Shown piece after piece: positions 21,592-54,337 of a stretch of DNA of 64,000 nucleotides; positions within the stretch are counted from its first letter, which is position 1, and each line of letters opens with the position of its first letter. Location of the stretch: the NCBI GenBank assembly GCA_964501355.1, contig CAZCSM010000004.1, forward strand, positions 3,340 through 67,339. Direction: 5' to 3'. Source of the DNA: an uncultured Candidatus Saccharibacteria bacterium (GTDB taxonomy: Bacteria; Patescibacteriota; Dojkabacteria; CAZCSM01). The notes beneath the pieces are model-generated. The model was not told the origin of the DNA. It was given only the letters and a program-made list of their open reading frames with translations, and ran no database searches. The translations under genes and the position numbers were made by a program.

Positions 21592-21653
21592 TTGACATTG
21601 TTTTTAGTTATTTGCTATACTTTCAGTGTTCAGTTAAGACTTAAGTATTTATT

Positions 21654-22644: not shown

Positions 22645-22765
22645 AAAATTTTAAGACAAATGTTCAGTGAACGCTTAACATATTAAAGCTATAAAACCCC
22701 AGTTCTTGTACAACTGGGGCAAATGATAGAGCAAACAATTAGTTTATTTTAGTAGGACAAACATC

Positions 22766-24116: not shown

Positions 24117-24169
24117 ATAAGCAAGGGCTGCCAGAACAACTGTTCAGGTTGTTTTGATTTAGGGGGTAT

Positions 24170-25744
24170 TTGCTCTGTCCTTGCGACAGTCTCCAAAATG
24201 CAGATGCCCCCTTAGTCATATTTGGCATTATGGATAAACCAAACGCAATTTTATACACGAGAGTATCCTCAGAACGACAAGTTGAAAACACTAGTCTTGA
24301 TGAGCAGGAAAAATATGGTAAGCAATATTGTGATAAAAAAGGACTCCATCTAGTGAGTGTTTTCCGAGAAGAAGGAGAATCGGCCAAGACGGACGATAGA
24401 ACACAATTAAAAAACGCACTTGCATATTGTTCTTCAAAAAAGAATGATATTAAATTCTTCCTAGTTTATCGGTATGACAGATTTTCCCGTTCTGTAGAAC
24501 ATCACCATAGTCTCAAAGCCGCACTAAGTAATTGGGGGGTTAGAGTAGTCTCGATGACTGAAGAAGTTGATGACTCTCCAGAAGGTAAGTTTCTCGAAAA
24601 CATTCTTGCCGCAGTTGCACAACTAGATAATGACAATCGTTCTGTTAAATCAAGCAATGGAATGAAGGCTATTTTGGAACAAGGACTCTGGCCATTTCCC
24701 CCACCCTACGCATACATAAAAGGCAAAGAAAACATCAACAAAGTAAACCCTCTTATTCCCGACCCAGAAAGATTCGACCTAATCAAAAAGGGATGGCAAA
24801 TGATGCTAACAGGAAGATACAAAAGCGTAGAAATCGTAAAAGAGCTTAATAATCAAGGATGTACGACAAGAACTGGGAAAAAGATGACTGAGGGACTAAT
24901 ATCCAGAGTGTTTAATAATCCGTTCTATGCAGGACAAATAAACTGCCCTAAATTTAATATTAAGGAAATTGAAGGGAAACACATGCCAATGATTAGCATT
25001 GAAGAGTTCTACAGAGTCCAAAAAATTATCAGTGACCAATCAACATCAAAGAAAGTTCCTCATAGCAAATATAATCCCGATTTTCCTCTCAATAAGATAA
25101 TATACTGCACGCACTGCGGAAGAGTTCTAACAGGAAGTTGGGCAAAGAAACATCTGGGACTTGGTTATTATAGATGTCTAAATTCAGAATGTAATAACAG
25201 AGACGGCAATAGTAAGGATGGTATTGAAGAAAGCTTTATAGAATTACTTAGAAGAATTAAGCCAACTGAAAAGCTACAACAACTATTTAGATTGGTGGTA
25301 AAAGACGTTTTTGAAAATAAGTTATCAGAGAAAGTTTCTTCCAAAAAGACAATCGAACAAAATCTACGAAAACTTGAAGAACAGAAGGTAAGAATTGAAG
25401 AACTATTGGAACAAGGTGTTTATGATGTTGATAAATATCGACTGAAGATATCAAAAATCTCACCAGAAATAGAAACTCTGAAGATTAACATATCTGAAAC
25501 AAACATAGAGATTTACGACCTTGAAACCTATGTGAATTACGCACTTCAATTTATTAACAATTTACCAGACTACTGGTTACAACTTCCGCCAGAAGCGAAA
25601 CATAAACTTAATTGGGCGATTTTCCCTAAAGGGTTAAAGATTCAAAATGGGAAAGTTACAACCGACGAATTAGCCAGTATTTATACAGATATTCAGGAGA
25701 TTGCGAAGCATAGGGTTACAAATGGTGGGCCTTCTGAGATTTGA
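24170..25744 (+). CDS. large serine recombinase (resolvase/invertase catalytic domain + recombinase domain + zinc ribbon)
   Basis: N-terminal catalytic domain with AILYTRVSSERQ (catalytic Ser) and FLVYRYDRFSRS. Recombinase domain and a Cys-rich ribbon (CTHCGR...C...C). C-terminal coiled coil. The likely start is the internal MDKPNA. The 3' end overlaps the tRNA by 22 nt. Confidence 0.8.
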   Translation: MLCPCDSLQNADAPLVIFGIMDKPNAILYTRVSSERQVENTSLDEQEKYGKQYCDKKGLHLVSVFREEGESAKTDDRTQLKNALAYCSSKKNDIKFFLVYRYDRFSRSVEHHHSLKAALSNWGVRVVSMTEEVDDSPEGKFLENILAAVAQLDNDNRSVKSSNGMKAILEQGLWPFPPPYAYIKGKENINKVNPLIPDPERFDLIKKGWQMMLTGRYKSVEIVKELNNQGCTTRTGKKMTEGLISRVFNNPFYAGQINCPKFNIKEIEGKHMPMISIEEFYRVQKIISDQSTSKKVPHSKYNPDFPLNKIIYCTHCGRVLTGSWAKKHLGLGYYRCLNSECNNRDGNSKDGIEESFIELLRRIKPTEKLQQLFRLVVKDVFENKLSEKVSSKKTIEQNLRKLEEQKVRIEELLEQGVYDVDKYRLKISKISPEIETLKINISETNIEIYDLETYVNYALQFINNLPDYWLQLPPEAKHKLNWAIFPKGLKIQNGKVTTDELASIYTDIQEIAKHRVTNGGPSEI

Positions 25745-25799
25745 ACTCAGGACCCCTGCTTTATAAGAACAGTGCTCTCACCAACTGAGCTAAAGGCCC
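25723..25799 (-). tRNA. tRNA with anticodon TAT (tRNA-Ile, AUA-reading)
   Basis: The reverse complement is GGGCCTTTAGCTCAGTTGGTGAGAGCACTGTTCTTATAAAGCAGGGGTCCTGAGTTCAAATCTCAGAAGGCCCACCA. It has a 7-bp acceptor stem, a canonical D-arm and T-arm, the anticodon loop CTTATAA with U33 and A37, and an encoded CCA. Confidence 0.6.
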
Positions 25800-25877: not shown

Positions 25878-28334
25878 CTAGAAAGGACTTGGCGGCGGTG
25901 TCAAATCGGGACCTGGAGTCGATTCTTCTTCCGCACCTCGCTGTGCCATCTCAGCTTCCACAAGCTCTCTATCACGACCATATCGAAGACGAGACAACTG
26001 CCTGATCATCTCAGCTGTTTTCTTGTCCGAAGGGAAACGACTCTTATCAAACCAAGTTGAGATAGAAAATGGTGTTGGATATTCACTATTTATTAATAAT
26101 TTTACGTAAGCATTCACATTCTCCAAGTTAACAAGATCATTCTCATCAAAGACCGGATAAAATTCGTTTTTCAAGTACTGGGCATCGTTAACACCAACCT
26201 TGAAACTGACGATTGAACCAATGTTACCAAAAACGGCATCTCGGATTTTCTCCTGAACCTGAGAAATGTACTGGTTTGCAACGATGAGGCCCAGCCCATA
26301 CTTTCTAGCCTCTGACAAAATCTGTGCGAAATCTTCCGTCGCGAAATTCTGAAACTCATCAACGTAAAGGAAGAAAGGTTTTCGGTCCTCTTTGTCAATG
26401 TCAGCACGACTCATGGCCGCAGACAGAATCTTCGGAACAATTAAGAGACCCAGGAACTGTGCATTCTCTTCACCAATAATTCCTTTTGAAAGATTAATTA
26501 ACAATATCTTCTGCTCATCCATCACCTTTCTAAAATCAAAAGATGATTTTGACTGACCGATGATATTTCGCATTAATTTGTTCGTTACGAACCTATCAAA
26601 CTTTGAAACAATATATCCCAGAATTTCGGATTTATGATATTGAGCGGTCTGCGCCTGTTCTTCCGTCCAATATTGTTTAACCATTTCATCTTTTATTTTC
26701 GGGATGAGTTTATCGACAAACTTTTGGGAAATCAGTATTCTTACAACTTCGACAAGTGTATATCCCTCTCCCGCCTCCATGGCGGTTAACATAGCATTTC
26801 TGACAGCACGTTCTAATCTCGGGCCAACAATACCCTGGCCATTCGGGTCAAAAAGTTTAATAAGAAGTCCGATAAATGCATTTACAACGCGATGTCGATC
26901 CTGCTCGTTATATGCTTCCATAATATTGAAAGCAACCGGTCTCTCGGTGTCACTCGGATCAAAAACGATTACATCCTCTATTCTTTCAGGAGGAATTCTA
27001 TCCATTATCCACTCGATAGCATCACCATGAGGATCCATGAATGCAACACCGTTGCCATTCATAATATCCTGAAGAGCCATACTCTGGATAAAGTATGATT
27101 TGCCGGAACCAGTCTTACCAACAACATACATATGTCGAAGACGATCCTCTACATTATCAAAGTAAACAGATCGCTCTTTTCCTCGATAGATATTCGTTCC
27201 CAGCCAAATTGAACCCTCATCGGGAACTTCTGCCGCTGCCGGAGCACGTTTCGACTTTAACCAGTGAATGTTCGGGACAGTAATCTCCTTATTAGGTAAG
27301 TGAAATATCGTCGCTAATTCATCAACGGTTAGAACGGAAGCCTGTTTTGCATTAGGATATCGAAATAGAAAATCAAACACGAACTGCTTTCTCTCCCAAG
27401 GCATCAACTTCTTGAACTTATACTTGGAGAATTTATTCATGTTTGGGCGAGAGAACTGCTCAAATGTACCAATCAAGTTGCTTAATAAGGTTTTCGACAC
27501 AGCTTTTGATTGTCCAACTGCAACTAGTCTTACATTCGTTGCAAACCCTGTCTTTGAACACTTCATTTCAATTCCTCTTAAGACATCTTCGGGAACATTA
27601 ATGTTCTTTTTTTCAGGATCAGAATTATAGTCTTTAACTTTATTCAAATACCCAATACCCGCATCTCGCCAAGTATCCGAAGATGGTGTTATTAATATCT
27701 GTACTGCAGTGGACTCACCTTCCGTCAGCTTGCTCATTGAGGTGAATATTGCACCAACGCCATCGATTGCCAGCTCATTATATGTTTGAATTGGATAGTG
27801 ATTATCCTTCTTTAATTTTAAACTCTCAAATGAAACAGAAGCTCCTTCGGAAAAGATATTATATTCATCGGTGATAACAACCTCGGATGGAGGATATGAA
27901 CCAAGAATCTGTTTCTCAACAAGTTCCTTCAACTCCTTAGGACAAGAAACGTACATACGAATACTTTCTGGAAAGGCAACAATTTCAAAAGAAATGTAAT
28001 CACTAAGTTTCAGTTTGCCACCCTCACTTATGGATGACAATCCTGAGAACATTTGTTCTGCGGCACTAATCTCAATCTCGTTACTTTGTGCTATACGTAT
28101 TTCAAAAAGAACTGATTCATAAGATCTCTTTTCTCTCTTGTTGTTCATATATGACTTGATTGCCCACAATACGAATCCAATAATTGCGAGGACAATACCA
28201 ATAAATACAACGATCATGAGATAGAAAATCGGATTTTGAGGAATTAGTCCCGTCGGAACGACGGGTGTTGAAGTAACATTATTTGTCCCAGTTAACGGGA
28301 CATTGTATTGGGCAGATATTACAAACACGTTCAT
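25878..28334 (-). CDS. VirB4/TraC-like (DUF87/AAA_10, FtsK-HerA superfamily) membrane-anchored ATPase
   Basis: 818 aa. N-terminal TM. Walker A MYVVGKTGSGKSYF at about aa 400 and Walker B-like FFLYVDEFQNF. The size and motif spacing fit type IV secretion/conjugation VirB4-class ATPases. A VirD4/TraG coupling protein is not excluded. Confidence 0.55.
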   Translation of the reverse strand: MNVFVISAQYNVPLTGTNNVTSTPVVPTGLIPQNPIFYLMIVVFIGIVLAIIGFVLWAIKSYMNNKREKRSYESVLFEIRIAQSNEIEISAAEQMFSGLSSISEGGKLKLSDYISFEIVAFPESIRMYVSCPKELKELVEKQILGSYPPSEVVITDEYNIFSEGASVSFESLKLKKDNHYPIQTYNELAIDGVGAIFTSMSKLTEGESTAVQILITPSSDTWRDAGIGYLNKVKDYNSDPEKKNINVPEDVLRGIEMKCSKTGFATNVRLVAVGQSKAVSKTLLSNLIGTFEQFSRPNMNKFSKYKFKKLMPWERKQFVFDFLFRYPNAKQASVLTVDELATIFHLPNKEITVPNIHWLKSKRAPAAAEVPDEGSIWLGTNIYRGKERSVYFDNVEDRLRHMYVVGKTGSGKSYFIQSMALQDIMNGNGVAFMDPHGDAIEWIMDRIPPERIEDVIVFDPSDTERPVAFNIMEAYNEQDRHRVVNAFIGLLIKLFDPNGQGIVGPRLERAVRNAMLTAMEAGEGYTLVEVVRILISQKFVDKLIPKIKDEMVKQYWTEEQAQTAQYHKSEILGYIVSKFDRFVTNKLMRNIIGQSKSSFDFRKVMDEQKILLINLSKGIIGEENAQFLGLLIVPKILSAAMSRADIDKEDRKPFFLYVDEFQNFATEDFAQILSEARKYGLGLIVANQYISQVQEKIRDAVFGNIGSIVSFKVGVNDAQYLKNEFYPVFDENDLVNLENVNAYVKLLINSEYPTPFSISTWFDKSRFPSDKKTAEMIRQLSRLRYGRDRELVEAEMAQRGAEEESTPGPDLTPPPSPF

Positions 28335-28858: not shown

Positions 28859-29317
28859 TTAAGAGACTCCCTTCAGCTCTCTTTTGAGATCAAGTTTTTG
28901 ATCTTCCGCTTGTAAATGTTTCTTCTTTCCTGCTATTTTTCGTCCTTTCCCCAGCCCGATTTTCACCTTTATTAGAGAACCCTTCAAATATACGGATAAA
29001 GGAACTATTGCACATCCCTCTTGAGCTACCTTAAGAAATAGATCCTCGGTTTCTTTTTTCTTTAACAGTAATTTTCTCGAACGCGCGGGATCATAGTCGC
29101 TCAAAGTATCACCCTTCCACTTGGAAATATTAGCATTTATTAAAAACAAAGAACTTCCTATCGGCTTGACGTAGCTTTCCTTTAGGTTGATTTTACCTTC
29201 TTTAATGGATTTAACTTCACCGCCGGAAAGAACAATCCCCGTCTCTATCTCATCAAGAATTTCGTAATTGAAAAAAGCTTTTTTATTCCGCGCAAGAGTC
29301 TTACTCATCGATGTCAA
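28859..29317 (-). CDS. smpB: SsrA-binding protein
   Basis: KKAFFNYEILDEIETGIVLSGGEVKSIKEGKINLKESYV and the C-terminal basic tail match SmpB. Confidence 0.85.
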   Translation of the reverse strand: MTSMSKTLARNKKAFFNYEILDEIETGIVLSGGEVKSIKEGKINLKESYVKPIGSSLFLINANISKWKGDTLSDYDPARSRKLLLKKKETEDLFLKVAQEGCAIVPLSVYLKGSLIKVKIGLGKGRKIAGKKKHLQAEDQKLDLKRELKGVS

Positions 29318-31448
29318 TTTCTATTATTCTGAAACCATCAAGTATATACAACCTATTGTTTGCGACGTCAACTGCAACTTCTTTCAAATCGTTAAAGAAA
29401 CGTTCTTCTCCCTCTTGAACAGCAAACTGTTTCTCCATCTTGAAAAGAACAGAACCACCTTCCGGTTGTTTAAGTAAAACAACCCTTCTTCCAGCTCTAT
29501 CTAATATAATTGCATACGAGTAGGCAAACAAATCGAATTTTCCTGTGTCGGTTAACTCGCCAACTTCATCGCTAATTTCAATATTATCTTCAAATCGCAT
29601 GAAATTCCCACCATCTCCTAATGTATATATTACATGAGTAATTTCGATATCTTCAGCATTTGAAAACAGAGGATCCTCAGCTCGGACCTGTGGATATGAA
29701 AATCCTGAACCGACGGGAGAAGACTTTTTTACTTTGCTTTCACTTGAGACAAGAAAATATAAAGAACCGTCATTTTCATAAACCGCAATTTCGGTGACAT
29801 CACCAAGAGTTGTTGGATTTAGTCCCGTAACTGAACTCAAGGTATATGAACCGTCATCTCCTTTTTTCGCAGAAAACAAGCCCTCTTCCGCATCGTAAAT
29901 GTATAGAGTATCATCAATTGCCTCCAAATATGCGGGTTTGCTTAATCCATCTGCTCTACCAAAAACGGCTGTTGCAGTTCCATCTGAAGGAGACACACGA
30001 TAAACAACACTAGAATTTGAATCGGACACCCATAAGTTATTGTCAAAAAGTATCAAATCATCAAGTTCTGCGTTTTCATACTCAATCTTTAAATCCGCTA
30101 TAACATTTGGATCCGCAAGCCTGACCCTTTTCTCTATCTGATCAACAATAACTTTTGCTTCAATAGCTAATTGATTAGCGCTGTTATTCTCGACTTCAAA
30201 ACCGGAAAGCTTTTCTGCATCAGTGATTACTCCCAATAGCATATTTCGAGATTCACCAGCATTATACGAAGCCATCGATGTCGCCTCCGATAATGTATTC
30301 TCGATTCGGGAATACTCGGCGGTATAATGTTCCTGAAGTTCGCGTGTAGCATTTTCCGATTTAATCCACCGCACACTTAAAAACAGTCCTACTCCAAAAA
30401 GAATAATACAAACTATCAACAGAATTCTTCGGAACTTTAACCTTTGAGTACTTTCAGTTTTATATTTTGATCTACCGCCGAAACCTACAATCGTCTCGAA
30501 AACCCAAGACCCTACAGAACCAAGTATACGAACAAATTTTGATAATGCTTTTTTTAGAAAAGGAAGAACACTTGTCCGGAAAATTGTAGAAGCATTTGAT
30601 AAAGCAGACTTAAATCGAGATTCTTCCCCGATCATAGGAACCCCCGAATCCTCACCCACCTCTTCTAACTCATATTGAAAATCTTCGTCAACAACCATTT
30701 CCTTCAAATCATCTTCCGGCAAATCAACGTTCTCTTCTTCAGCGACATCGACTGTAGACATGTCCTCCTCCTCCGTAATAACCTCTCCACTCTCTTCTTT
30801 ATCATCATCCTCAGATTCCTCTTGCTCGGGGACACTGATACCTTCTTCAATATCATCAACAGCATTAGCAAACTCCTCGACAGAAACCTTATCGCCTATA
30901 ACCATAGAGAAGTTCTCTAGAATTTGATTAGCAGAAGTTTCAAAACCCGCAGGAAAGTATAAGACGGAATTAGGAGACAATAGAAATAAGTCAGCACCAC
31001 CTACTTTTCCACTAATGACCTTTATAGATGCATCTTCCACCAGCGAAGAAAAGTTCAATATCTTCTCCCCTCTCCCCATATAACAGCCGGATTTCCCTAA
31101 CAAACCGATGTAGACATTTTCCCCCAGGAAAAGCAAAATACACACTCTAACGGAGAGACTATCATCATACTCTGCACCTTCTGAAGTGAAAACTGTCTTG
31201 CTGGAATCTTTGAGTTGATGCAATATTGAATCTAAGAGCTTAATTCTATCATCCTCAACTGAATTCATGACAAGATCCAAGGCAGATTGAGAGAGATATT
31301 TCCCTATCTTTTCCAGATCTAATTTATCATTATCTAGGTGGATGACACCGAAGACCCCTCCTCCACTCCATGTTTTGGAAAATGGGATGGAACGCTGATT
31401 TGCAAGACCATCTTTGAGTTCAAAGACTTGGCTTTTCAGATTTAACAT
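29301..31448 (-). CDS. hypothetical bitopic membrane protein (central TM; C-terminal beta-rich, propeller-like domain)
   Basis: 715 aa with a TM near aa 330-350. The C-terminal half has a repetitive beta-strand pattern (YIYDAEEG..., LYFLVSSE..., LYILDGF...). Confidence 0.4.
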   Translation of the reverse strand: MLNLKSQVFELKDGLANQRSIPFSKTWSGGGVFGVIHLDNDKLDLEKIGKYLSQSALDLVMNSVEDDRIKLLDSILHQLKDSSKTVFTSEGAEYDDSLSVRVCILLFLGENVYIGLLGKSGCYMGRGEKILNFSSLVEDASIKVISGKVGGADLFLLSPNSVLYFPAGFETSANQILENFSMVIGDKVSVEEFANAVDDIEEGISVPEQEESEDDDKEESGEVITEEEDMSTVDVAEEENVDLPEDDLKEMVVDEDFQYELEEVGEDSGVPMIGEESRFKSALSNASTIFRTSVLPFLKKALSKFVRILGSVGSWVFETIVGFGGRSKYKTESTQRLKFRRILLIVCIILFGVGLFLSVRWIKSENATRELQEHYTAEYSRIENTLSEATSMASYNAGESRNMLLGVITDAEKLSGFEVENNSANQLAIEAKVIVDQIEKRVRLADPNVIADLKIEYENAELDDLILFDNNLWVSDSNSSVVYRVSPSDGTATAVFGRADGLSKPAYLEAIDDTLYIYDAEEGLFSAKKGDDGSYTLSSVTGLNPTTLGDVTEIAVYENDGSLYFLVSSESKVKKSSPVGSGFSYPQVRAEDPLFSNAEDIEITHVIYTLGDGGNFMRFEDNIEISDEVGELTDTGKFDLFAYSYAIILDRAGRRVVLLKQPEGGSVLFKMEKQFAVQEGEERFFNDLKEVAVDVANNRLYILDGFRIIEIDIDE

Positions 31449-31457
31449 TGGCAGTTA

Positions 31458-31673
31458 TTAAATTAGAAAGAATACAATTACCGATCCAGCTGCAACAACT
31501 GCAAAATGCAGTATTGCTAATAATTTTAGCAGAACACTTAGGTTCGTACCAAGAATTTTACACAAAATTACGACTTGCCGATAGACTAAAAATGCTAAAA
31601 CGGTGTAACCAAACCCTACGACAGCGACTATTGCTTTTGCTATTATTGTCCCAATAAACGTAGTTTCCAACAT
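31458..31673 (-). CDS. hypothetical small two-TM membrane protein
   Basis: 71-aa ORF. An opposite-strand ORF (31448..31657) is the alternative reading. Low confidence either way. Confidence 0.25.
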   Translation of the reverse strand: MLETTFIGTIIAKAIVAVVGFGYTVLAFLVYRQVVILCKILGTNLSVLLKLLAILHFAVVAAGSVIVFFLI

Positions 31674-31739
31674 CCCCTCTAAGGATTAAAATAAGTTTTT
31701 ATCAAACAAACAACTGCAAGAAAGAAATAATTTCATGAT

Positions 31740-32348
31740 TTATTTCTCTTTCTTCAACAATGCAGCCAAATCCATTATCTTATCTTGAACATATCCTGGC
31801 TTTGGAACATTATCAAATCGGAATTCTGCAGTCTCAGCAGCCGTTTGAATTTTCACGGTACCGAAATCAAAAAGATTTTGCCAAAGTCCAAAGTGACCAG
31901 ACGAAACATCCTCAATATTCGAAAGAGAAGCTTCACTGATTTTGTGGTTTAACAAGCCGTAGAAATCCAAGTCCAAAATTCTATCACTCGTAATAATATA
32001 TACATTAAAGTACCATTTTAAAAACTGCATTAATGTATACGTCGAAAGAACAATGTACCAGCCCACCCAAGCACATACTAAGTATGAGAAAGGGAATAGA
32101 TCAGAATCAGTTGGCAAAGTACTAAGAACAGCGACAATAACAAAGGGAATTACGAGTCCAATTAATAAGTTGAAAACCCAGGGTAAATTGACTGCCCAGT
32201 GTTGACGAAGAAGAATGTACACGTCCTCATCGTCATTCTGACTTTCAAATCGCACACTTTTCGGAAGTAGCATCATCGAAGCAAAGGCACCAACACTGTC
32301 TTTCTCTAACAGACAGCGCATTTTTTCCTTTGTATTTTTTCTTGCCAT
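31740..32348 (-). CDS. membrane protein with bacterial PH (bPH_2/YdbS-like) domain
   Basis: Two TM helices followed by a ...YIITSDRILDLDFYGLLNHKISEASLSNIEDV block, typical of DUF304/bPH_2. Confidence 0.45.
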   Translation of the reverse strand: MARKNTKEKMRCLLEKDSVGAFASMMLLPKSVRFESQNDDEDVYILLRQHWAVNLPWVFNLLIGLVIPFVIVAVLSTLPTDSDLFPFSYLVCAWVGWYIVLSTYTLMQFLKWYFNVYIITSDRILDLDFYGLLNHKISEASLSNIEDVSSGHFGLWQNLFDFGTVKIQTAAETAEFRFDNVPKPGYVQDKIMDLAALLKKEK

Positions 32349-32408
32349 TATCTTTTGCTATAAAATACCATCTGAAAATATTATACCACAACTATTACAT
32401 TATAATGC

Positions 32409-34286
32409 CTAACTCGCAATAAAATCAAAGCGAGAAGTTTTAATATGCAAGGTCCCAGGAGATCTTAAGTAATAAACATTCTTGAAGCCCTGTGCTGCAA
32501 ACTCTCTAACAGGATAATTTGCACTTTTAACAATAATCGTCGTTGTATCACCAGAATTGTTTTCATATGTTAGAACTTCGGATATTGTTCCAATCGGTGT
32601 AACACCCAATTCTATCAGTTTATCAATTACCTGTTGATGCGACCACGTGTCGTCATATCCATAATACAAAGGTGACAAGTGAACATTATATTCCTCACCG
32701 GAAACTTCCATAAGTAACATGATGTTGAATAGGTCCTGGGTTTCTTCATTTGTTAACCAAGGATTACAATCACTTGGATAACTAGCAAATTGCGTACAGT
32801 GCTTTGTATTCCAATCATCATTCTTCGCTCCCCAGAATCTGTGGTAAAAAGGAGATTTTGCGTAAGCGCTCCCTTCATAAGGACCGTTTGGACCATAATC
32901 TTTTATAGACTTCATCCAAGGCAGGTTCTGTGCATAATACCCGGATTCAATTCCAAGTTTGGTATACCCACCGGCTGAGGCTGAATAGTATGCGGAGATT
33001 GGACTTCCGCCGGAAGACAGAACCATTCCAGAAGTATCGAGAACCGCTTGATGCCAAATCGATGCCGAGGAATTTTCAACCTTATCCATGTTATAAACCT
33101 GATTGCTTTGGTTCGGCTGAATAGATTTTGTTCCATTATTTGTAAAGGCAATTGCGTATGAACGAGCAAGAATCGCCTGTGCCTTTTGAACCTCTGCTGG
33201 CCAGCTGGAAGGAACTTCCGCTATACCTTTCATATATTTCCCCTCAAATGACATCACTTCATCAACATATCTCCCCTGCTCGTCAGTTCCTTGTACATGG
33301 ATAGTATCCATAGAAGCATATCCGCCAACTAAATCTGCATTGAAATATGCACCTAAAATCTGTTCATAGTTTTGACCGTCTAGAGCCCTACCATAAGCGC
33401 CATACTGACTCATACCAACTCGATGGGGAACTCCGTAGCTAGCTACTGCGAAAGCTCCTGAATACGGAGAAGCGGGCATGTTATATACATTACTTGACTC
33501 AAGAAGTCGTTGGGCGGCAGCTTCAGCTGCCAACTTCGCTTGAATTAACGCTTTCTGTTTTTCCGTTAACGCACCAATATTACTTTCAATAGTACTCATT
33601 TGCTGTCCTAAAGATTGCTGCTTATTCTGCTCTGAGGAAATGCGACTATTTGCACCTGCAATCTGCGCATTTAATTTCTCAATTTCAGAATCAAGATCGG
33701 TATTAACGGCTACCAGTTCATCTTTTAGAAAAACAATCTGCTCTAGATTGGTTTGGAGATTTTCAAGCTGTGAATTTAAGGAAACCAACGTTTCATGATC
33801 GACCTCAATAGCAGATTCCTTATACTCCCAAATCCGCATTAAGCGATTAAAATCACTAACGTTCATCAGGAACTCAAACACTGGAAATTTGTATTGGTAA
33901 TACAAGCTCTGAACTCTTGTATTCTTTTGATCAAGCCTGCTATTTACTAAATCAGAGGTTGAAGAGATCTCACCGTTGAGACTTTCTATACTCTTTTCAT
34001 TTTCTTCTATCTTTGCCCTAATTGCGTTTACCTCAGTTTTCACGCCATTTAATTGCCAGTACAGCGTACCTTTGTTATTTTCTAAATCCTTGAGGTATTG
34101 CTTGCTTGATTCTAAATCATTTTTAATTTTCTCTAATTCCTGATTTTGTGCATTAATCTCTTTTTGGACATCTTCAATCTCATCAGCAAAAACACTTTTG
34201 TCATTCAGTAATAGAGAAGCACCAACGACAAAAGTAAGTACAACTGCAATAATGGATAAAGTTTGTTTTCGTAATTTAACAGCCAT
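32409..34286 (-). CDS. secreted SpoIID/LytB-domain protein with N-terminal coiled coil
   Basis: Signal/TM segment, then a long coiled coil, then SpoIID-like VPHRVGMSQYGAYGRA (the G.GMSQ.GA motif). Confidence 0.6.
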   Translation of the reverse strand: MAVKLRKQTLSIIAVVLTFVVGASLLLNDKSVFADEIEDVQKEINAQNQELEKIKNDLESSKQYLKDLENNKGTLYWQLNGVKTEVNAIRAKIEENEKSIESLNGEISSTSDLVNSRLDQKNTRVQSLYYQYKFPVFEFLMNVSDFNRLMRIWEYKESAIEVDHETLVSLNSQLENLQTNLEQIVFLKDELVAVNTDLDSEIEKLNAQIAGANSRISSEQNKQQSLGQQMSTIESNIGALTEKQKALIQAKLAAEAAAQRLLESSNVYNMPASPYSGAFAVASYGVPHRVGMSQYGAYGRALDGQNYEQILGAYFNADLVGGYASMDTIHVQGTDEQGRYVDEVMSFEGKYMKGIAEVPSSWPAEVQKAQAILARSYAIAFTNNGTKSIQPNQSNQVYNMDKVENSSASIWHQAVLDTSGMVLSSGGSPISAYYSASAGGYTKLGIESGYYAQNLPWMKSIKDYGPNGPYEGSAYAKSPFYHRFWGAKNDDWNTKHCTQFASYPSDCNPWLTNEETQDLFNIMLLMEVSGEEYNVHLSPLYYGYDDTWSHQQVIDKLIELGVTPIGTISEVLTYENNSGDTTTIIVKSANYPVREFAAQGFKNVYYLRSPGTLHIKTSRFDFIAS

Positions 34287-38314: not shown

Positions 38315-39088
38315 TTAATTTGGAACTCGACAGGCCCGATTCCCCGTTGGTAATACATAACATTCAGTCTCACCTGCATCATACCCCATTGACGGGCAAA
38401 CCCAATTGTAGCAAGGATCTGCAATGCACTCATGTGTAGCTTCTTTACAATACTCTCCCTCAACACAGGCGGGATCACATGCCTCCGGGGTCGGAGATGG
38501 TGTAAATGCAGGCTCACAGTAATTGAGAACACCATCTTGAACACAAGTTTCGTTTGGTGTACAACAAACATTCCCACAGGTAACAAGGTTGTCATCTTCA
38601 CAGGTTCTTTCCCCAGGAGTGAAAGAATTATCGTCCCCATCAGAATCAGAGTACGAAGAACCTGTATATTTATAGTCTTCTATACAAAAGTCTACCCTCA
38701 TGACTCCTTCATCACTAATCCACTTGAAAGTTCCCGATCCTAATATAATCATCTGTAACGTTCCAATTATGGCAATTGCGGACAAACCAACAATCAAACC
38801 AATCACACCATAAGTTAAAGTCTGTTGAGACTGCTGAACTTTTTGAGGCTCAGCACCCGCAGTTGCCCATAGAAAAGCTCCATACATCAATATTGCCAGC
38901 CCTCCTAGAGGAAATACAGCAACAACCATATTGAATACGGACATTATTACCGAAGTTAATTCACAAATCTTCGGAGCGGTTATAGTCGAAGGCGCAGCGA
39001 ATGCTGGCATAACAAATGGAAGAACCAGCAGATAAAAGGAAAGAAAGAAAGGAAATAGAAATTTTATTCGCTTCCAATTAATTTTCAT
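38315..39088 (-). CDS. VirB2/TrbC-like pilin-fold protein with C-terminal Cys-rich extension
   Basis: Signal peptide, then two hydrophobic helices around an AGAEPQK loop (…LMYGAFLWATAGAEPQKVQQSQQTLTYGVIGLIVG…). The ~110-aa C-terminal module has 16 Cys. Confidence 0.4.
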   Translation of the reverse strand: MKINWKRIKFLFPFFLSFYLLVLPFVMPAFAAPSTITAPKICELTSVIMSVFNMVVAVFPLGGLAILMYGAFLWATAGAEPQKVQQSQQTLTYGVIGLIVGLSAIAIIGTLQMIILGSGTFKWISDEGVMRVDFCIEDYKYTGSSYSDSDGDDNSFTPGERTCEDDNLVTCGNVCCTPNETCVQDGVLNYCEPAFTPSPTPEACDPACVEGEYCKEATHECIADPCYNWVCPSMGYDAGETECYVLPTGNRACRVPN

Positions 39089-39252
39089 GTGATGTTTGTT
39101 TCAAATATGCATCAATATGATACCAAAGATTTCAAGAATTACAAAGAAAGATATCGAACATCTCTTTTCATGAAACATCCTACAAAACAAATTCCCGTAG
39201 AATCAAAAACAAAAATGGCGCCGAAGCGCCATTTATTTTCGAAATGAAACAA

Positions 39253-39648
39253 CTATGGTGTAGGAAGTAAAGAACCGTCCTCTCCCAATCTATCTAATTC
39301 GCTTACTCCGAATCCAACTCCGAATAGATATAGCACAACTCGAAGAATAGTGTATGCCAAGATTACAATTGCAAGACCTATTATTGCAGATATAATTTGC
39401 TTTTGAGCTTCCTCTGTCTTTCCAGGATCTCCCGCTGAAGTAACATATTTAATACCAGCATAAATCAAATAGCCTAATGCAATGAGTCCCGCAAGAATTG
39501 CTGCCCAATTTACAAAGGTATTGATAACCTTATCTAACTGAGTTGCAAATTCACTATCATCCTGAGCAAACACAGGTGCTGCAACAAGAGATAACGAGAA
39601 GGCTGCTAATGTTGCACTCTTTAAAACTTTCTTCATAGGATCTTTCAC
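39253..39648 (-). CDS. VirB2/TrbC-like pilin-fold protein (minimal form)
   Basis: Signal peptide (…AAPVFA|QDD), then VNWAAILAGLIALGYLIYAGIKYVTSAGDPGKTEEAQKQIISAIIGLAIVILAYTIL. Two TM helices flank a GDPGK loop, matching T4SS-pilin architecture. Confidence 0.45.
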   Translation of the reverse strand: MKDPMKKVLKSATLAAFSLSLVAAPVFAQDDSEFATQLDKVINTFVNWAAILAGLIALGYLIYAGIKYVTSAGDPGKTEEAQKQIISAIIGLAIVILAYTILRVVLYLFGVGFGVSELDRLGEDGSLLPTP

Positions 39649-39711
39649 CCCCTTAATTAATAGTTAAATTATACAGTATAATTTTGAAAAAACAAACATT
39701 TTCTAAATTAC

Positions 39712-40293
39712 CTACTCACATGTCAATCGAGAAACTGTCACATTGTAGGTGCAGGCACCAGATTGACATTCCGGTCCAGTTGTACAATCTTCTCCCCGAG
39801 TTTTTTTTGCAACTGTTTCTGTTTCCTGAGCAGAAACAGTAGGGCCGCCGACACACTTATTGCTCACGCCAAACAACCACATGACTAATCCCGCAACTGA
39901 CCACGCAAGGATGACAATTGCAAAACCAATCATTGCATTAATAATAGTTTTTTGCCCCTGCTCCATCTTCCCGGGATCTCCTGATGAAATCATATAGGTA
40001 ACACCACCATATATCAAATACCCCAACAAACCCAATCCTGCAAGAATCCCTGCCCAGTTAACAAATGTTTTAGCAATAGACCAAGGAATACATTTTGATT
40101 TTGTAACATCGTCTACATCAATTTCGCCTGCTAATCCAAAAGAGAACATGGAGACAATTTCATCCCAAAGAGACGAAATTGAGTCAACTCCATCACCTTC
40201 AGCAGCATGGACAGAAACCGGAGCAGAAAATACACAAACAAAAGCTACGGAGATGACTACTGTTGCAATAATTGTTTTAATAAACTTGTTCAT
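39712..40293 (-). CDS. VirB2/TrbC-like pilin-fold protein with C-terminal Cys-rich tail
   Basis: …VNWAGILAGLGLLGYLIYGGVTYMISSGDPGKMEQGQKTIINAMIGFAIVILAW… followed by a CxxxC-rich tail (CVGG…CTTGPECQSGACTYN…CE). Confidence 0.4.
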   Translation of the reverse strand: MNKFIKTIIATVVISVAFVCVFSAPVSVHAAEGDGVDSISSLWDEIVSMFSFGLAGEIDVDDVTKSKCIPWSIAKTFVNWAGILAGLGLLGYLIYGGVTYMISSGDPGKMEQGQKTIINAMIGFAIVILAWSVAGLVMWLFGVSNKCVGGPTVSAQETETVAKKTRGEDCTTGPECQSGACTYNVTVSRLTCE

Positions 40294-40315
40294 TAATTAC
40301 TTAAAAAAATTAAGA

Positions 40316-40798
40316 TTAAGTGCAAATACACTCACCGGCACCATTAATATATCCGCCCGTATTACTCGGATCAGTATTAATACAATCCTCTTCACACATT
40401 TCTTGAGTCATTCCACCGCCGCCACCCGTTCCACCATTTGACCCAACACCCGTAAAAAGATCTGACCAATTTATTCCCAAAACAAACGACAAGAAGAAGA
40501 AAATTCCTAAGCCTACCCCAAACAAAGCAAACCCTATTACCGCATTCACCAAAGTCTTTCTTGCTCCTTCTAATTGATCAGGTTTATCGGCAGCGGTCAT
40601 CCACATATATGCACCGTATAATAAGTAACCAACAAGAGCAACACCGATTACAATTGCAACAACCGGAAGAAAAGCTCCGATTACCCCCCAGATTGAATCA
40701 AATCCTAAAGGATTGTTTAATCCTGCAGAATATATAGGAGTAACAAAAATCGCAGATAAAAACAGAACGGATATTGTTGTTAACAAATATTTCTTCAT
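40316..40798 (-). CDS. VirB2/TrbC-like pilin-fold protein with Gly-rich/Cys C-terminal tail
   Basis: …VALVGYLLYGAYMWMTAADKPDQLEGARKTLVNAVIGFALFGV… followed by GSNGGTGGGGGM…CEEDCIN…CICT. Confidence 0.4.
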   Translation of the reverse strand: MKKYLLTTISVLFLSAIFVTPIYSAGLNNPLGFDSIWGVIGAFLPVVAIVIGVALVGYLLYGAYMWMTAADKPDQLEGARKTLVNAVIGFALFGVGLGIFFFLSFVLGINWSDLFTGVGSNGGTGGGGGMTQEMCEEDCINTDPSNTGGYINGAGECICT

Positions 40799-40816
40799 AG
40801 AATATTTACTGAAATA

Positions 40817-41722
40817 TTAATCTAATTTAAATCCAAAACTTCCAAGCCCCAATACATCGAACCCAAAGAACTTCAATAATAAAACCGCACTGACGATAAC
40901 AACCAATCCAATTAGGGCCGCAGTTATTATGCTCTTTCCCTCTTGTAGTTTATCAGGATTTCCCGTAGCTGTCATTACCATAAACGAGCCCTGGATAATT
41001 TTGAATACGGCTATTATACCACCAATAATTGAACCAAATATAATTGCCCAATTAGCAAGACCGGTAGATTCCGTTGGAATACAACCAAGTGCAGTTAATA
41101 CACCTTCGCCGCCAATGGCCGTTTTGCAACCTACTTCAGGATTCCGCAACAGAACACCTCCGGAAATAGACCAACCTTTTGCTGTGCACTCAGCCTGACA
41201 ATCCGCTTTTGCCACACCGGACAGTTCATGAGAAATCCCTGCATCATCAATGCAAACACAGGTATCCTTAGCAACACCGTAAATGGCAGAATCTTGATCG
41301 CAAAACCCAAATGTAAGAGGCACTCCCACACCGCCTAATGTTCCCGACCTTGTAGCAAAACTCTTACACCCAAGAAAGTTTTGTCCTTTATGATCACCGT
41401 CTTCAACTTCCGATCCCGCAGAATAGCATTTATCTGTACCTGCACGAACCCACACATTTCCTTCTGGACAAAACTCAGCATTTGTAACACCACCATTTTC
41501 TATTCCTTTTGCAGCAGCTCCATTTACACCGCCGAACATACACTTAGGCCCAGGGAATGCAGCAGAGCCATTTTCACAACAATACTTATTCAGCACAGAA
41601 GCAGAATCCTCGAAATACCCAACAGGACATTTCAAGGGCTCCGTTCCTACAGCATAAGTAAACCTTGACGATGTCAACAAGAGTATGAAAGCTATCGCAA
41701 AAGAAGTTAAGATTTTTCTCAT
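40817..41722 (-). CDS. Cys-rich secreted domain fused to a C-terminal VirB2/TrbC-like pilin-fold module
   Basis: Signal peptide and an ~200-aa N-terminal module with ≥18 Cys. The C-terminus, …NWAIIFGSIIGGIIAVFKIIQGSFMVMTATGNPDKLQEGKSIITAALIGLVVIV…, places the domains in reverse order relative to its neighbours. Confidence 0.4.
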   Translation of the reverse strand: MRKILTSFAIAFILLLTSSRFTYAVGTEPLKCPVGYFEDSASVLNKYCCENGSAAFPGPKCMFGGVNGAAAKGIENGGVTNAEFCPEGNVWVRAGTDKCYSAGSEVEDGDHKGQNFLGCKSFATRSGTLGGVGVPLTFGFCDQDSAIYGVAKDTCVCIDDAGISHELSGVAKADCQAECTAKGWSISGGVLLRNPEVGCKTAIGGEGVLTALGCIPTESTGLANWAIIFGSIIGGIIAVFKIIQGSFMVMTATGNPDKLQEGKSIITAALIGLVVIVSAVLLLKFFGFDVLGLGSFGFKLD

Positions 41723-41780
41723 TTCGTTTCTATTAATAGTACAAACAAGAGTATATTAACAATAACGCAAATAGTCAACA

Positions 41781-41809
41781 AAAAGAGGTGCAAGAAGCAC
41801 CTCTTTTTT
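41781..41809. terminator. bidirectional rho-independent terminator downstream of groEL
   Basis: AAAAGAGGTGCAAGAAGCACCTCTTTTTT, a hairpin flanked by an A-run and a T-run. Confidence 0.55.
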
Positions 41810-43974: not shown

Positions 43975-44100
43975 CGATTAGTATTATAAGATTGAGAGGG
44001 GAAAATTGTCAAGAGAAATCAGCGAATAAGAAATTGCTTTCGGTTAATTCAGTTTTATAATTCAAGCATAAACTTAATAAAATACCCTTGCGCTGAAAAT

Positions 44101-44300: not shown

Positions 44301-46430
44301 CTACTCTTCAGTCGTTTCTACAGTTTCAGCTTCACCCTTATCCACCTCCAACTTCACCTCAATCTTCCCCTTAATCGTCGGAACGTGTTTGAATTTCTCA
44401 GGAAGCCAATCAGGCCCAAGGGTTAACTCAAAACTAGTAATTGATTCAAGAGAATTCATAAATGACTCAACATCTTCGACTTTTTTTCCTGCAATTGATT
44501 CTTTGACCGAAGTCTCCGTAATATCACCAGAAATCACTCCCATCGCCTTCATAATTATAATTGCATCATCACCATCCCTACGAATGAAATCACCAGAATA
44601 TTCAGATTGCTCTTCTAGCAACTTCAACCCGGTAGCAACCTGCGAAAGAAGCAATTGATTTCCAAGTGTCTTAATATCATCTGCAGAATAAACGTATGCC
44701 CGAGCTTTAACTTTCATATTCAAATTAACCGCACTTGTCTCTGCGCCTGCTTCAACATCATAATTCTCTTCAACTGTTTCAACGCTAATCATTTCATCTC
44801 GAATTTCGAAACCGCTTCCCACCTGAGCCTTAACCTTGTTTTTAACTTTTTCTTGAAGAGATTGCTCCAAGGACTCCTTTAATAATCTTCTATCATCTGC
44901 AGTAACAACGACAACCTCTTTCTTTGTACCGCCAGAGAAAGCAGCGAAACTCCTGCCCAACATTGCCGTAGAGGTAAACCCTTCAACCACAAATTCAGTA
45001 CCTGATGCCAAATTGTATTCTTCACCAATGTCATATGCTTCGACACTAACTTCCGCTTTTCCTAAACCTGCGAAATAATCGGTTTTAGGAATATTCTCAT
45101 TATTTAAAAGTTTGAACTTGTAACCATCCCCTGTCATAACCGTACCTGCATTAATTTGTATATCCGATTCTGTTTTATTAACCAATGTAACTTTTCCTTT
45201 CGCTTTTTCACCACGAACCTCATTTCCTGTCGCGGCACGAGAATCAGATCCGCTTTCTTCCACTTCTTGCATCACAAGAGGAATTTTTAAATTTTCTAAA
45301 TCAACATCGGTATCTTGCAAACTAGCTCGAATTTCTTGTTCTAAATTAACAGTTTCATATTTTACCTGAGCGGTTAATGTAGCCTCAGGAGCAACGAAAT
45401 ATGCATATACTCCACCTACTCCGGCAAGAATTAATAAAATAATAATAATCGGGATTAATAATTTTGCATTGAATTTCGGCATCCCAAATTTCGGAAGTTT
45501 AATTGCACTTAAAATCCGCTTTGGATTGAGTTTCTCACGAACAGGTTCTTTTAACTCATAACTCGTCATATCCCGTCCAACAGCGTGAAGATTATCGCTT
45601 TTCTCCTCCTCTTCAGAATGAAAATCTGAAACAAATTCTCTCTTTTCAATAATCTTTTCCGGTTTTTTGCTAATAATTCCCCTATCAATTTTAGCAACAT
45701 CTTGCCCAACAACAAAACCAAATTCCTCTAAGCTAGGTTCTGTTGAAACTTCTTGATCAACTATTTCTTTCTTCTCTTTATTACGCAGGAAAGAAGGAGT
45801 TTCGGTATCTTCCTCTATTTCTAAACTCTCCGCTTCAAGTTGTTTCTCAGTATCATAAAAATCATCAGAATCAGTGTCAGGAACAGTTACAGTTACAGGA
45901 GCAGTTTCAACTCCAGAAACAAGCTCATCCTCCTTTGTCGTTTGTCCTTTGTCTTTCTTGTCTGCCGTAGCCTTGGCGAAGGCGGATGACGTTTGACTTT
46001 CAGACTCAACAATTCCATCATCGCCTTCAACTTCAAAATTTTCTTCTTTCTTTTCTCTTTCTTCATCCTTCTTTCCTAGTACCGGATTCATCCCCCTCTT
46101 TCTCAATCTGTTCTCAGATTCTAACCAAATACCCTCACTTATATCTGCGACTCTTTTAAGCACGGGAACTCCTGCACGAGTTGCAAATTTTTGAGCGCCC
46201 TCGTCAAGGGTAACAAGGACCAAGCTTTTCCCACGTTTGAAAACAAGCTTCGATAATAATTTGAGTGAAACTAAGGACGAAATGACAGCAGCCCCTTCCG
46301 GAGCAACTAAAACAATTCGATCCGCCTCTGCATCACGAATTCGCTCAACGACAAAAGTAATTTCGTCATCTAAATCTACAAATATTTTTTCGTCCTGTTT
46401 ATTAAGCATTTCAATGAAACTTCTAAACAA
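44301..46430 (-). CDS. hypothetical bitopic membrane protein
   Basis: 709 aa. N-terminal ~110-aa cytoplasmic domain, an acidic low-complexity linker, a TM (LLIPIIIILLILAGVGGVYAYFV), and a ~370-aa extracytoplasmic domain. Lies downstream of ftsA. Confidence 0.4.
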   Translation of the reverse strand: MFRSFIEMLNKQDEKIFVDLDDEITFVVERIRDAEADRIVLVAPEGAAVISSLVSLKLLSKLVFKRGKSLVLVTLDEGAQKFATRAGVPVLKRVADISEGIWLESENRLRKRGMNPVLGKKDEEREKKEENFEVEGDDGIVESESQTSSAFAKATADKKDKGQTTKEDELVSGVETAPVTVTVPDTDSDDFYDTEKQLEAESLEIEEDTETPSFLRNKEKKEIVDQEVSTEPSLEEFGFVVGQDVAKIDRGIISKKPEKIIEKREFVSDFHSEEEEKSDNLHAVGRDMTSYELKEPVREKLNPKRILSAIKLPKFGMPKFNAKLLIPIIIILLILAGVGGVYAYFVAPEATLTAQVKYETVNLEQEIRASLQDTDVDLENLKIPLVMQEVEESGSDSRAATGNEVRGEKAKGKVTLVNKTESDIQINAGTVMTGDGYKFKLLNNENIPKTDYFAGLGKAEVSVEAYDIGEEYNLASGTEFVVEGFTSTAMLGRSFAAFSGGTKKEVVVVTADDRRLLKESLEQSLQEKVKNKVKAQVGSGFEIRDEMISVETVEENYDVEAGAETSAVNLNMKVKARAYVYSADDIKTLGNQLLLSQVATGLKLLEEQSEYSGDFIRRDGDDAIIIMKAMGVISGDITETSVKESIAGKKVEDVESFMNSLESITSFELTLGPDWLPEKFKHVPTIKGKIEVKLEVDKGEAETVETTEE

Positions 46431-53831: not shown

Positions 53832-54083
53832 CTAATACCTCGACTGCACAATGCCGAAACAAACATTCTCTTCCATCTCCCAACCTATACATTTTTGCGA
53901 TTCATTATCGAAGTCTCTTGCGAAAGCACGAAATACCCATGGCATCTTCCACATCGCAAAAAAAGCCACTCCGATAAGAATTCCTGTTACGATATAAACC
54001 TCCATCGTGGACTTTGCCAATCGATAAAGGCCTGACATCAACAGAAGAAATAATATGATAACTACAATCGCCCAAAACTTCAT
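53832..54083 (-). CDS. hypothetical small membrane protein (paralog of next gene)
   Basis: Two TM helices and a C-terminal C.G…CFGIVQ motif. Confidence 0.3.
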   Translation of the reverse strand: MKFWAIVVIILFLLLMSGLYRLAKSTMEVYIVTGILIGVAFFAMWKMPWVFRAFARDFDNESQKCIGWEMEENVCFGIVQSRY

Positions 54084-54091
54084 AATATCTC

Positions 54092-54337
54092 CTATTTAAT
54101 TAATCCGAAGCAATCTCCGCTTTCTAGTATTAATCCGTAGCAAGTAGCGCCATCAGGAATAACCTGAGCAGCATTTTGCATAAGCGGGTCGAGCCACGGT
54201 AATGCAAGGTAAACCAGAAGAGAAACTACTAAAAGCCATAAAAGAAAACTAAATAGTTTTGCTCCGGTTTTCAGAAGTTTCAGTGCAGCAACGATTAACA
54301 ATATCATCGCAGCAATAGCTATTAATTTTGATACCAT
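54092..54337 (-). CDS. hypothetical small membrane protein (paralog of previous gene)
   Basis: Two TM helices and a C-terminal CYGLILESGDCFGLIK. Confidence 0.3.
   Translation of the reverse strand: MVSKLIAIAAMILLIVAALKLLKTGAKLFSFLLWLLVVSLLVYLALPWLDPLMQNAAQVIPDGATCYGLILESGDCFGLIK

Follow-up and report, generated by a model that had tools for sequence, protein, structure and literature searches.

VirB2-family pilins are regarded as uniformly tiny proteins without accessory domains. Five adjacent genes in the 64,000-nucleotide stretch of DNA analyzed here (contig CAZCSM010000004.1; referred to below as the window) raise the question of whether pilins of this family can also carry exchangeable modules. 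Each gene encodes a pair of hydrophobic helices, and in four of the five this pair is joined to a different extension. In episymbionts of the candidate phyla radiation (CPR), which recognize and hold host cells, a type IV secretion system (T4SS) pilin array is among a small number of loci for which a requirement in epibiotic growth has been demonstrated. Our reading, to which a probability of roughly 60% is given, is that the five genes form a Patescibacteria-type array of VirB2-like pilins within a conserved envelope gene block, in which the smallest protein would be the main subunit and the extended paralogues would provide outward-facing variable surfaces.

The core shared by the five genes

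The five open reading frames (ORFs) are named here by their length in amino acids (aa). All are uninterrupted and are located on the minus strand in the order p301 (positions 40817 to 41722), which is the first gene, p160 (40316 to 40798), p193 (39712 to 40293), p131 (39253 to 39648) and p257 (38315 to 39088), with intergenic gaps of 18, 22, 63 and 164 nucleotides (nt). An earlier, sequence-only reading had described five consecutive, co-oriented paralogous genes at the same positions and with the same lengths. Hydropathy analysis and alignment detected in every protein the layout proposed in that reading, a hydrophobic signal-like segment at the N terminus followed by two more hydrophobic helices, with AxA-like cleavage sites after the signal segments. 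Between the helices is a short polar loop of the type G-D/N-P-x-K, with the variants AGDPGK, SGDPGK, ADKPDQ, TGNPDK and AGAEPQK, and the loop proline is invariant. The recurring motif formulated earlier for this core fitted p131 and p193 well and p301, p160 and p257 loosely. Levels of identity between p301 and its paralogues were 23 to 28% in a full-length alignment, and p193 was 53% identical to the p131 core. Predicted mature lengths were 277, 136, 163, 103 and 226 aa for p301, p160, p193, p131 and p257, respectively.

A hidden Markov model (HMM) of the core recovered exactly these five ORFs, and no sixth pilin core, from the six-frame ORFs of the window, although its E values (4e-34 to 9e-30) are circular because the model was built from the same five sequences. 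Independent support for a shared core was provided by the Pfam family PF18895 (T4SS_pilin; gathering score, 26.6 bits), which matched all five proteins with E values of 1e-15 to 5e-5, four of them above the gathering score. The highest scores were those of p131 (57.7 bits) and p193 (49.7 bits; E = 4e-13), followed by p301 (32.4 bits; E = 9.6e-8; aa 220 to 286) and p257 (28.4 bits; E = 1.7e-6). The score of p160 was below the gathering score (23.6 bits; E = 5.4e-5); an identical database entry, P0011, carries the PF18895 annotation, and p160 was matched with an E value of 7e-11 when the p131 core was used as a phmmer query. The minimal protein, p131, also exceeded the gathering score of PF04956 (TrbC/VirB2), with 33.4 bits against 27.9 and 89 of the 98 profile positions covered, and the cut-off of the NCBIfam model NF045849 for a mycoplasma integrative and conjugative element (ICE) pilin-like protein, with 50 bits against 40. 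No direct match to PF04956 was obtained for the other four paralogues.

Profile-profile comparison was performed with hhalign against a reference set of VirB2/TrbC proteins from seven conjugative plasmids (MPF_T), each encoded by a gene flanked by virB1 and virB3. A p131-family profile derived from a 120-sequence alignment matched plasmid VirB2 with a probability of 90.8% (E = 1.2e-6) over 90 columns comprising the end of the signal peptide, both helices and the loop, although part of this score may stem from the signal-peptide region. The control, a small two-helix family of the same gene cluster (DUF5657), scored 9% with VirB2 and 0.3% with the pilins. Taken together with the family matches, these comparisons support assignment of the core to the VirB2/TrbC-like family PF18895, and the sequence-only reading was borne out in calling the core VirB2/TrbC-like. 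Searches of Protein Data Bank (PDB) sequences with phmmer and profiles detected no match to VirB2 or TraA.

An AlphaFold2 (AF2) model of p131 consisted of a hairpin of two helices (aa 32 to 70 and 75 to 108) with a predicted local distance difference test (pLDDT) score of 85 to 92. Structure comparison indicated an alpha-hairpin fold too generic to be informative, which leaves room for a core that is no pilin but belongs to some other kind of small membrane protein with two helices (a holin, an immunity protein or a domain of unknown function, for example), its database name being misleading. The peptidoglycan hydrolase encoded nearby and a subthreshold match of p193 to Phage_holin_3_6 (E = 0.09) could be read in the same way. 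This explanation is very improbable given that p131 exceeds the curated thresholds of both the TrbC/VirB2 and the mycoplasma ICE pilin-like models, that the plasmid VirB2 profile was matched so far above the control and that the predicted cleavable signal peptides are unlike holins. A holin assignment was rejected, the best match (13.3 bits) being far below its cut-off of 28.4 bits and signal peptides being present. A type IV pilin assignment was likewise rejected: no class III motif of the G|FTLxE type was found in any of the five proteins, which have type I-like signal peptides and two helices.

The claim that the array belongs to no described family proved to be wrong, because PF18895 exists and tandem arrays of such genes are in print for Patescibacteria. 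Arrays of four to six small VirB2-related proteins with signal peptides were noted in Saccharibacteria in 2018 (10.1101/258137), and a series of pilin genes is essential within the T4SS locus of Southlakia (PMC10633639). VirB2-like pilins have been reported in 1,948 Patescibacteria assemblies, in only 1,135 of which a pilin gene is near virB4, and in 441 arrays of 2 to 11 genes with a mean identity of 25%, especially in Microgenomatia and Saccharimonadia (PMC12102498). A 2025 review describes the Patescibacteria pilins as the only VirB2-like pilins of monoderms (PMC12857230). The five adjacent paralogues examined here, with their 23 to 28% identity, have the published array trait of 2 to 11 divergent tandem genes. 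They resemble the arrays of Southlakia epibionticum ML1, Nanosynbacter TM7x (the "Sec-secreted array") and the 441-array set in family, tandem co-orientation, level of identity, Sec signal peptides, chromosomal site and reduced episymbiont-type genome. The published pilins are treated as small, whereas four of the five genes are extended here and no virB4 was recognized in the 64 kb. The canonical pilins VirB2 (Ti), TrbC (RP4) and TraA (F) of family PF04956 share the signal peptide, the two hydrophobic helices and the short polar loop but are diderm proteins of approximately 7 to 10 kDa when mature, have no extra domains and are encoded next to virB1, virB3 and virB4. In contrast to the small PF04956 subunits (approximately 70 to 100 aa when mature, without an accessory domain), only p131 is in the size range, and in place of a position between virB1 and virB3 or virB4 the array is flanked by groEL and hsp20, with sbcCD beyond.

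The start of p131 is probably Met5, an ATG at 39636, which yields a 127-aa protein, the length of the database entry P0009. The public annotation of p257 (P0001; 231 aa) begins at Met27 and drops the signal peptide that orthologues keep, and a start codon miscall is probable. This differing start, together with a related ORF containing three cores that may be an assembly or frameshift product (L007, see below), could be taken to suggest that the extensions arose from miscalled starts, frameshift fusions or decaying sequence. Such an artefact is largely refuted, the chance left to it being close to negligible: the ORFs are uninterrupted, Cys parity is even in every protein, the architectures recur independently in dozens of genomes, and one homologue (P0006) matches p301 from end to end.

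Cysteine-rich modules and their turnover

p301, p160, p193, p131 and p257 contain 14, 4, 7, 0 and 16 Cys residues in total and 14, 4, 6, 0 and 16, respectively, after removal of the predicted signal peptide, every one of the latter counts being even. Cys accounts for 7.3% of the p301 N-terminal domain, 11.5% of the p257 C-terminal module, 10.2% of the p193 tail and 8.3% of the p160 tail, compared to 0.50% in 22 other proteins of the window. The modules are located at the N or C terminus only and never inside the loop. Content, parity and placement upheld the earlier proposal of genuine accessory modules that vary from paralogue to paralogue and can be attached at either end.

In p301, a signal peptide (aa 1 to 24) is followed by a predicted Cys-rich N-terminal ectodomain (aa 25 to 215; approximately 41078 to 41650; 14 Cys), a C...GVLTALGCI linker and the hairpin (aa 219 to 285). 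The AF2 model of this protein, based on a five-sequence alignment, contained helices at aa 219 to 250 and 256 to 285; the remainder had a pLDDT of <50, and the overall value was 43. The p160 protein consists of a signal peptide, the hairpin, a Gly-rich linker (GGTGGGGG) and a 4-Cys tail (aa 113 to 160; approximately 40319 to 40462). In p193, a signal peptide and an acidic N-terminal extension of approximately 40 aa precede a hairpin with C68 and C147 on either side, and aa 148 to 193 form a tail with four Cys residues. This tail bears Cys residues, as had been proposed, but with the spacing C-x5-C-x4-C-x10-C and not CxxxC. The signal peptide of p257 is followed by a hairpin flanked by C42 and C135, an acidic linker and a C-terminal module (aa 136 to 257; approximately 38318 to 38683); the 16 Cys residues attributed earlier to a C-terminal domain are present in the protein overall, 14 of them in the module and the other two at the flanks of the hairpin. 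The p131 protein has no module.

The flanking residues are conserved apart from the modules. C42 of p257, which precedes helix 1, and C135, which follows helix 2, are invariant in three orthologues with different modules, and the equivalent pair of p193 is kept in the orthologue from a close relative (L001). Both pairs probably form a disulfide that would staple the two termini of the hairpin together. VirB2 and TrbC are cyclized head to tail, and the putative staple would be similar to this cyclization in outcome only. The N-extended pilins share a linker of the form C...G-V-[LW]-T-A-[LI]-G-C-I with two invariant Cys residues; C199, G213, C214 and I215 of p301 were invariant in five homologues. 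In VirB2 and TraA, both termini lie on the outer face and the loop is directed toward the cytoplasm or the pilus lumen, and a swap of a domain between the N and C termini would be topologically neutral because both termini face outside. MdbA-like oxidoreductases and VKOR are enriched in CPR genomes (10.1101/335083), and this enrichment and the even Cys parity would fit extracytoplasmic disulfides.

Comparison of the modules with Pfam and NCBIfam detected no match at an E value of ≤1 except for that of the p193 tail to Toxin_21 (E = 0.16). The p301 N-terminal domain alone had no credible homologue among 1.84 billion representatives; the single match obtained, a 4,891-aa protein with InlK_D3 repeats, was judged to be spurious, the Cys residues being unaligned and the score summed over repeats. 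Residues 163 to 191 of p257 have a C-C-CC-C-C spacing, a knottin-like pattern that is a lead only. Assignment of the modules to knottins or another curated Cys-rich domain was not supported, in view of the lack of any other family match and the pLDDT of <50 for the p301 domain.

The C-C-CC-C-C spacing and the weak match to Toxin_21, a spider-toxin family, raise the question of whether the hairpin is a carrier for export and anchoring from which proteases liberate the small Cys-rich tails as secreted peptides (toxins, signals or inhibitors) that target the host. The Gly-rich or acidic linkers between core and module would suit such a precursor. This explanation is improbable: there was no significant match to a toxin or knottin family and no recognizable cleavage motif, and the N-terminal modules are joined to the core by the conserved disulfide-type C...GCI linker and not by a cleavable spacer.

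Comparison of orthologues indicated that the modules turn over. The close relative L001, a 2.3-kb Logan contig, has the same array gene order with different decorations. Its p160 orthologue is 62% identical and lacks the Gly/Cys tail, its p193 orthologue has a different tail, and its p257 orthologue (L001, 1622 to 2158) has a Cys-rich minimodule at the N terminus and none at the C terminus, while another p257 orthologue (P0002) has no module. One homologue of p301 (P0005) has a core that is 71% identical and an unrelated N-terminal domain without Cys; another (P0006) is homologous over the full length, with N-terminal domains that are 27% identical. A word-indexed search detected, besides identical entries, two homologues of p257 and four of p301, and a scan of genome contigs with an alignment of p131 orthologues found nothing. 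BLAST clustering of 75 extension modules left 38 as singletons, and the remainder included an 18-member cluster of N-terminal domains; the only relation between the modules of this array and the 75 was that between the N-terminal domains of p301 and P0006. Module turnover is thus evident at the sequence level, orthologues carrying other modules or none, and the explanation that we favor is that lineages rapidly acquire, lose and exchange modules on a hairpin that stays conserved.

In order to examine recurrence, genomes were scanned with a p301-type alignment, which yielded 36 loci, mostly from Microgenomates (Woese-, Collier-, Roizman- and Gottesmanbacteria) and from other Patescibacteria. 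Together with L001 and L002 these formed a census set of 38 loci, in which local HMM searches detected 219 pilin-core ORFs. Short forms accounted for 171 of these (median, 118 aa), 134 of which have no Cys. N-terminally extended forms of 172 to 540 aa, mostly with 8 to 40 Cys residues, numbered 39, a frequency biased upward because the N-extended subtype was the query for the locus sample; six further ORFs were extended at the C terminus and three at both ends. Extended forms are a minority overall, because the 120 matches listed in the core profile search were all ≤160 aa, and with four extended genes of five this is an unusually rich array. In the 36 related loci, an N-terminally extended Cys-rich pilin usually heads the array. 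First-gene pilins of the p301 subtype range from approximately 100 aa with no domain (L026, L035, L037 and L038) up to 540 aa, with N-terminal domains of up to approximately 450 aa, and N-extended forms often score 20 to 26 bits with PF18895. The core/poly-Gly/Cys-rich design of p160 is also present in three of the C-extended proteins, those of L022, L023 and L024. The domain combination searched for in other genomes therefore recurs, the architectures being present in dozens of related genomes. Pfam analysis of ten extended pilins from other genomes detected a dockerin in L007 and a weak Big_1 match and otherwise no family.

Two further observations were made in these loci. A single ORF of L007 (5889 to 7451) contains a dockerin type I module and three tandem pilin cores and is either a genuine polypilin or a frameshift or assembly artefact. 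Proteins of 800 to 990 aa without a Pfam match are encoded directly after the arrays of three Microgenomates loci (L002, 9866 to 12301; L020, 14372 to 16771; L021, 15667 to 18648); that of L002 carries a signal for secretion, and its C-terminal region is very rich in Cys.

Our open-access literature search found no mention of VirB2-like pilins bearing Cys-rich or Gly-linked modules at their termini; since subscription papers lie outside its scope, the result is only an absence of evidence. The family and the array were thus already known; apparently undescribed are the modules and how they recur, the swapping between orthologues and the constant placement of the N-extended pilin beside a SpoIID gene.

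Gene neighborhood and what the array may assemble

The window is chromosomal, Patescibacteria-like DNA with a G+C content of approximately 37% and contains polA, ftsH, groESL, pnp, infB, nusA, smpB and an RNase J gene. Transcription signals were read from the sequence of the minus strand. The interval 41750 to 41809 contains the intrinsic terminator of groEL (approximately 41780 to 41803; GAGGTGC-ttctt-GCACCTC followed by a T run) and a promoter-like site before p301 (TTGACT-17-TATACT; score, 10/12). A strong terminator hairpin follows p131 (39213 to 39234), and a promoter-like site with an extended TG precedes p257 (39117 to 39144). Because of this terminator and the separate promoter-like site, the array splits into p301-p160-p193-p131 and p257. 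Only p131 among the five genes has a strong Shine-Dalgarno-like sequence, AAGGGGGTGA; it is also the most conserved gene of the array, with many orthologues of 50 to 90% identity. A perfect sigma-70 consensus (TTGACA-18-TATAAT; 12/12) is present at 43983 to 44012, upstream of groES.

A conserved partner cluster on the same strand (29301 to 34286) was defined by Pfam, NCBIfam and synteny. It encodes a SpoIID-domain protein (32409 to 34286), 4 kb from the array and a possible VirB1 analogue, a bPH_2 membrane protein (31740 to 32348), the small two-helix DUF5657 protein (31458 to 31673) and a 715-aa membrane protein of no family (29301 to 31448). DUF5657, a family of two-helix proteins of 71 to 90 aa, might be an analogue of PrgI/VirB3. 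At the far end of the syntenic block, 10 kb from the array, is the gene for an 818-aa VirD4/TraD-like ATPase resembling a type IV coupling protein (T4CP) (25878 to 28334, minus strand). This protein matched the Pfam families T4SS-DNA_transf, TrwB_AAD_bind and TraG-D_C; matches to the NCBIfam TraD and CD1115 VirD4-like models were below the cut-offs, and matches to DotL and TrwB in the PDB were weak.

The linkage of these genes is conserved. A SpoIID homologue is immediately beside the first pilin gene in 31 related loci, with bPH_2 next in 24, and the block of SpoIID, bPH_2, DUF5657 and a protein of approximately 650 to 750 aa adjoins pilin arrays in more than 20 genomes. In the distant locus L035 the order is five pilins, SpoIID, bPH_2, a 90-aa protein, a 751-aa protein, SmpB, a 107-aa protein and an ATPase, which is in the equivalent position and 46% identical to the protein encoded at 25878 to 28334. 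The order in the window is the same except for hsp20 and sbcCD, which are inserted between the pilins and SpoIID, and the gene order of the partner cluster was also matched in L002. The gene smpB, whose product is the partner of transfer-messenger RNA (tmRNA), is located at 28859 to 29317 between the genes for the 715-aa protein and the ATPase and occupies the equivalent place in L035 (11004 to 11447), an unexpectedly conserved linkage. The neighborhood of SpoIID, bPH_2, DUF5657 and the protein of approximately 700 aa points to unannotated machinery that works with the pilins.

In the reading favored here, the envelope block would comprise, in order, the pilin array, the SpoIID-like cell wall hydrolase, bPH_2, DUF5657, the membrane protein of approximately 700 aa and the T4CP-like ATPase. 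Each pilin would be exported by Sec, with cleavage of the signal peptide, and inserted as a helical hairpin with the G-D/N-P-x-K loop inward and both termini outward, as in VirB2 and TraA. The Cys-free, best-conserved and probably best-translated p131 would be the main structural subunit, since it combines the highest conservation, the only strong Shine-Dalgarno-like site and the terminator that follows it. The four extended paralogues may be alternative or minor subunits, with disulfide-bonded modules carried on an exposed terminus, either directly or via a Gly-rich or acidic linker, and projecting from the filament or the cell surface. The modules would thereby supply variable binding or protective surfaces toward host cells. 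If the extended paralogues are indeed filament or surface components, they are candidate determinants of host recognition and module turnover would become a genomic readout of host range.

Several points weigh against this reading. Pfam and NCBIfam searches of the window and of sampled flanks of related loci recognized no VirB4, VirB6 or VirB8, including the VirB6/VirB8-type partner sought after the sequence-only reading, and the large neighbors of related arrays contained no VirB4 or VirB6 by Pfam. T4CP homologues are ubiquitous in Patescibacteria and may be exapted, so that they are not necessarily parts of a T4SS. The link to a T4SS machine consequently rests mainly on pilin homology. With regard to that homology, an 11-sequence core-only profile without signal peptides matched VirB2 with a probability of 9.7% in hhalign, which is the reason for the qualification placed above on the fuller profile. 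The modules are without detectable homologues or domains and the AF2 model of p301 is unusable, so that a binding function is purely inferred. A VirB2-type helical lattice would become crowded if each subunit carried a module of 120 to 190 aa, and the query bias in the census exaggerates how common N-terminal extensions are. Finally, no filament of Patescibacteria T4SS pilins has been demonstrated, the recent review referring merely to the "potential to elaborate conjugative pili" (PMC12857230).

These points bear on whether the hairpins polymerize at all. They may instead stay in the cytoplasmic membrane, perhaps in or near a translocation channel, and display Cys-rich ectodomains at the surface or at a wall remodeled by SpoIID. 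T4SSs of monoderms generally have no pili and a CPR T4SS pilus has never been seen (PMC12102498, PMC12857230); a VirB2 lattice could hardly accommodate N-terminal domains of up to approximately 450 aa on each of its subunits, the dockerin module of L007 is typical of cell surface scaffolding, and the lack of VirB4 and VirB6 nearby points in the same direction. Set against this, what is conserved is a VirB2-like hairpin unit with the typical loop, and the bare pilins of 100 to 130 aa that dominate the arrays (171 of 219) would have nothing to display. A simple anchor would also not need 5 to 11 divergent paralogues, and the Southlakia pilin array is essential together with T4SS genes (PMC10633639). 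Permanent membrane anchorage is the main alternative, albeit an unlikely one.

A more specific form of the pilin reading, a heteropolymeric VirB2-type filament built by Patescibacteria, and by Microgenomates and the present lineage in particular, on cells that have no outer membrane, is put forward tentatively and is doubtful. Its shaft would consist of bare pilins, into which modular pilins with rapidly swapped disulfide-rich modules on the exposed termini would be incorporated; the N-extended first-gene pilin, encoded beside the SpoIID, bPH_2 and DUF5657 genes, would act as a VirB5-like initiator or tip adhesin, and exchange of modules would set host specificity. If true, VirB2 pilins bearing domains would be known for the first time. 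The comparison with VirB5 is speculative and functional, based on a protein that is typically present once per locus, in a fixed position and with a large exposed domain; the two are unrelated in sequence, and Gram-positive T4SSs otherwise lack VirB5, as they do VirB2 (PMC12857230).

Three known systems resemble parts of the proposed arrangement. Modular type IV pilins, such as PilB and PilC of Streptococcus sanguinis, and the large minor pilins of type IV pili follow a similar concept, in which a functional module is attached to a pilin scaffold and displayed on the filament of a monoderm. This likeness is functional only, their fold and machinery being unrelated, with a class III signal peptide and one helix at the N terminus. 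The archaeal Ced and Ted conjugation-like pili are VirB2-like filaments on cells without an outer membrane and provide a precedent in that respect. To our knowledge, the VirB2 paralogues of Anaplasma and Bartonella vary in sequence only and gain no domains. The arrays of these two genera are similar to the present one in their tandem amplification and divergence, read as surface variation or host range adaptation (PMC12102498), but belong to diderm, eukaryote-targeting systems. The archaeal subunits are small and unmodular, and the system, of which Ced is mentioned in PMC12102498, imports DNA.

Other features of the window

A probable integrated mobile island was detected at 8659 to 25799, between two tRNA-Met genes (8659 to 8842) and a tRNA-Ile(TAT) gene (25723 to 25799). 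It contains genes for a tyrosine integrase (9346 to 10281), a 537-aa secreted orphan protein (10394 to 12007), a helix-turn-helix protein and a Phage_CRI/G2P-like replication protein (22766 to 23941), as well as a complete type I restriction-modification system consisting of hsdR (13723 to 16923), hsdS (17794 to 19056) and hsdM (20026 to 21591). The end of the gene for a large serine recombinase (24170 to 25744) overlaps the tRNA-Ile gene. A 709-aa membrane protein with a weak Baseplate_J-like match (E = 3e-5) is encoded at 44301 to 46430, between an ftsA/pilM-like gene and groES. Two adjacent paralogous small membrane proteins of 83 and 81 aa, which belong to no Pfam family and have tails of the form C-x(9-10)-C-F-G-(I/L), are encoded at 53832 to 54337.

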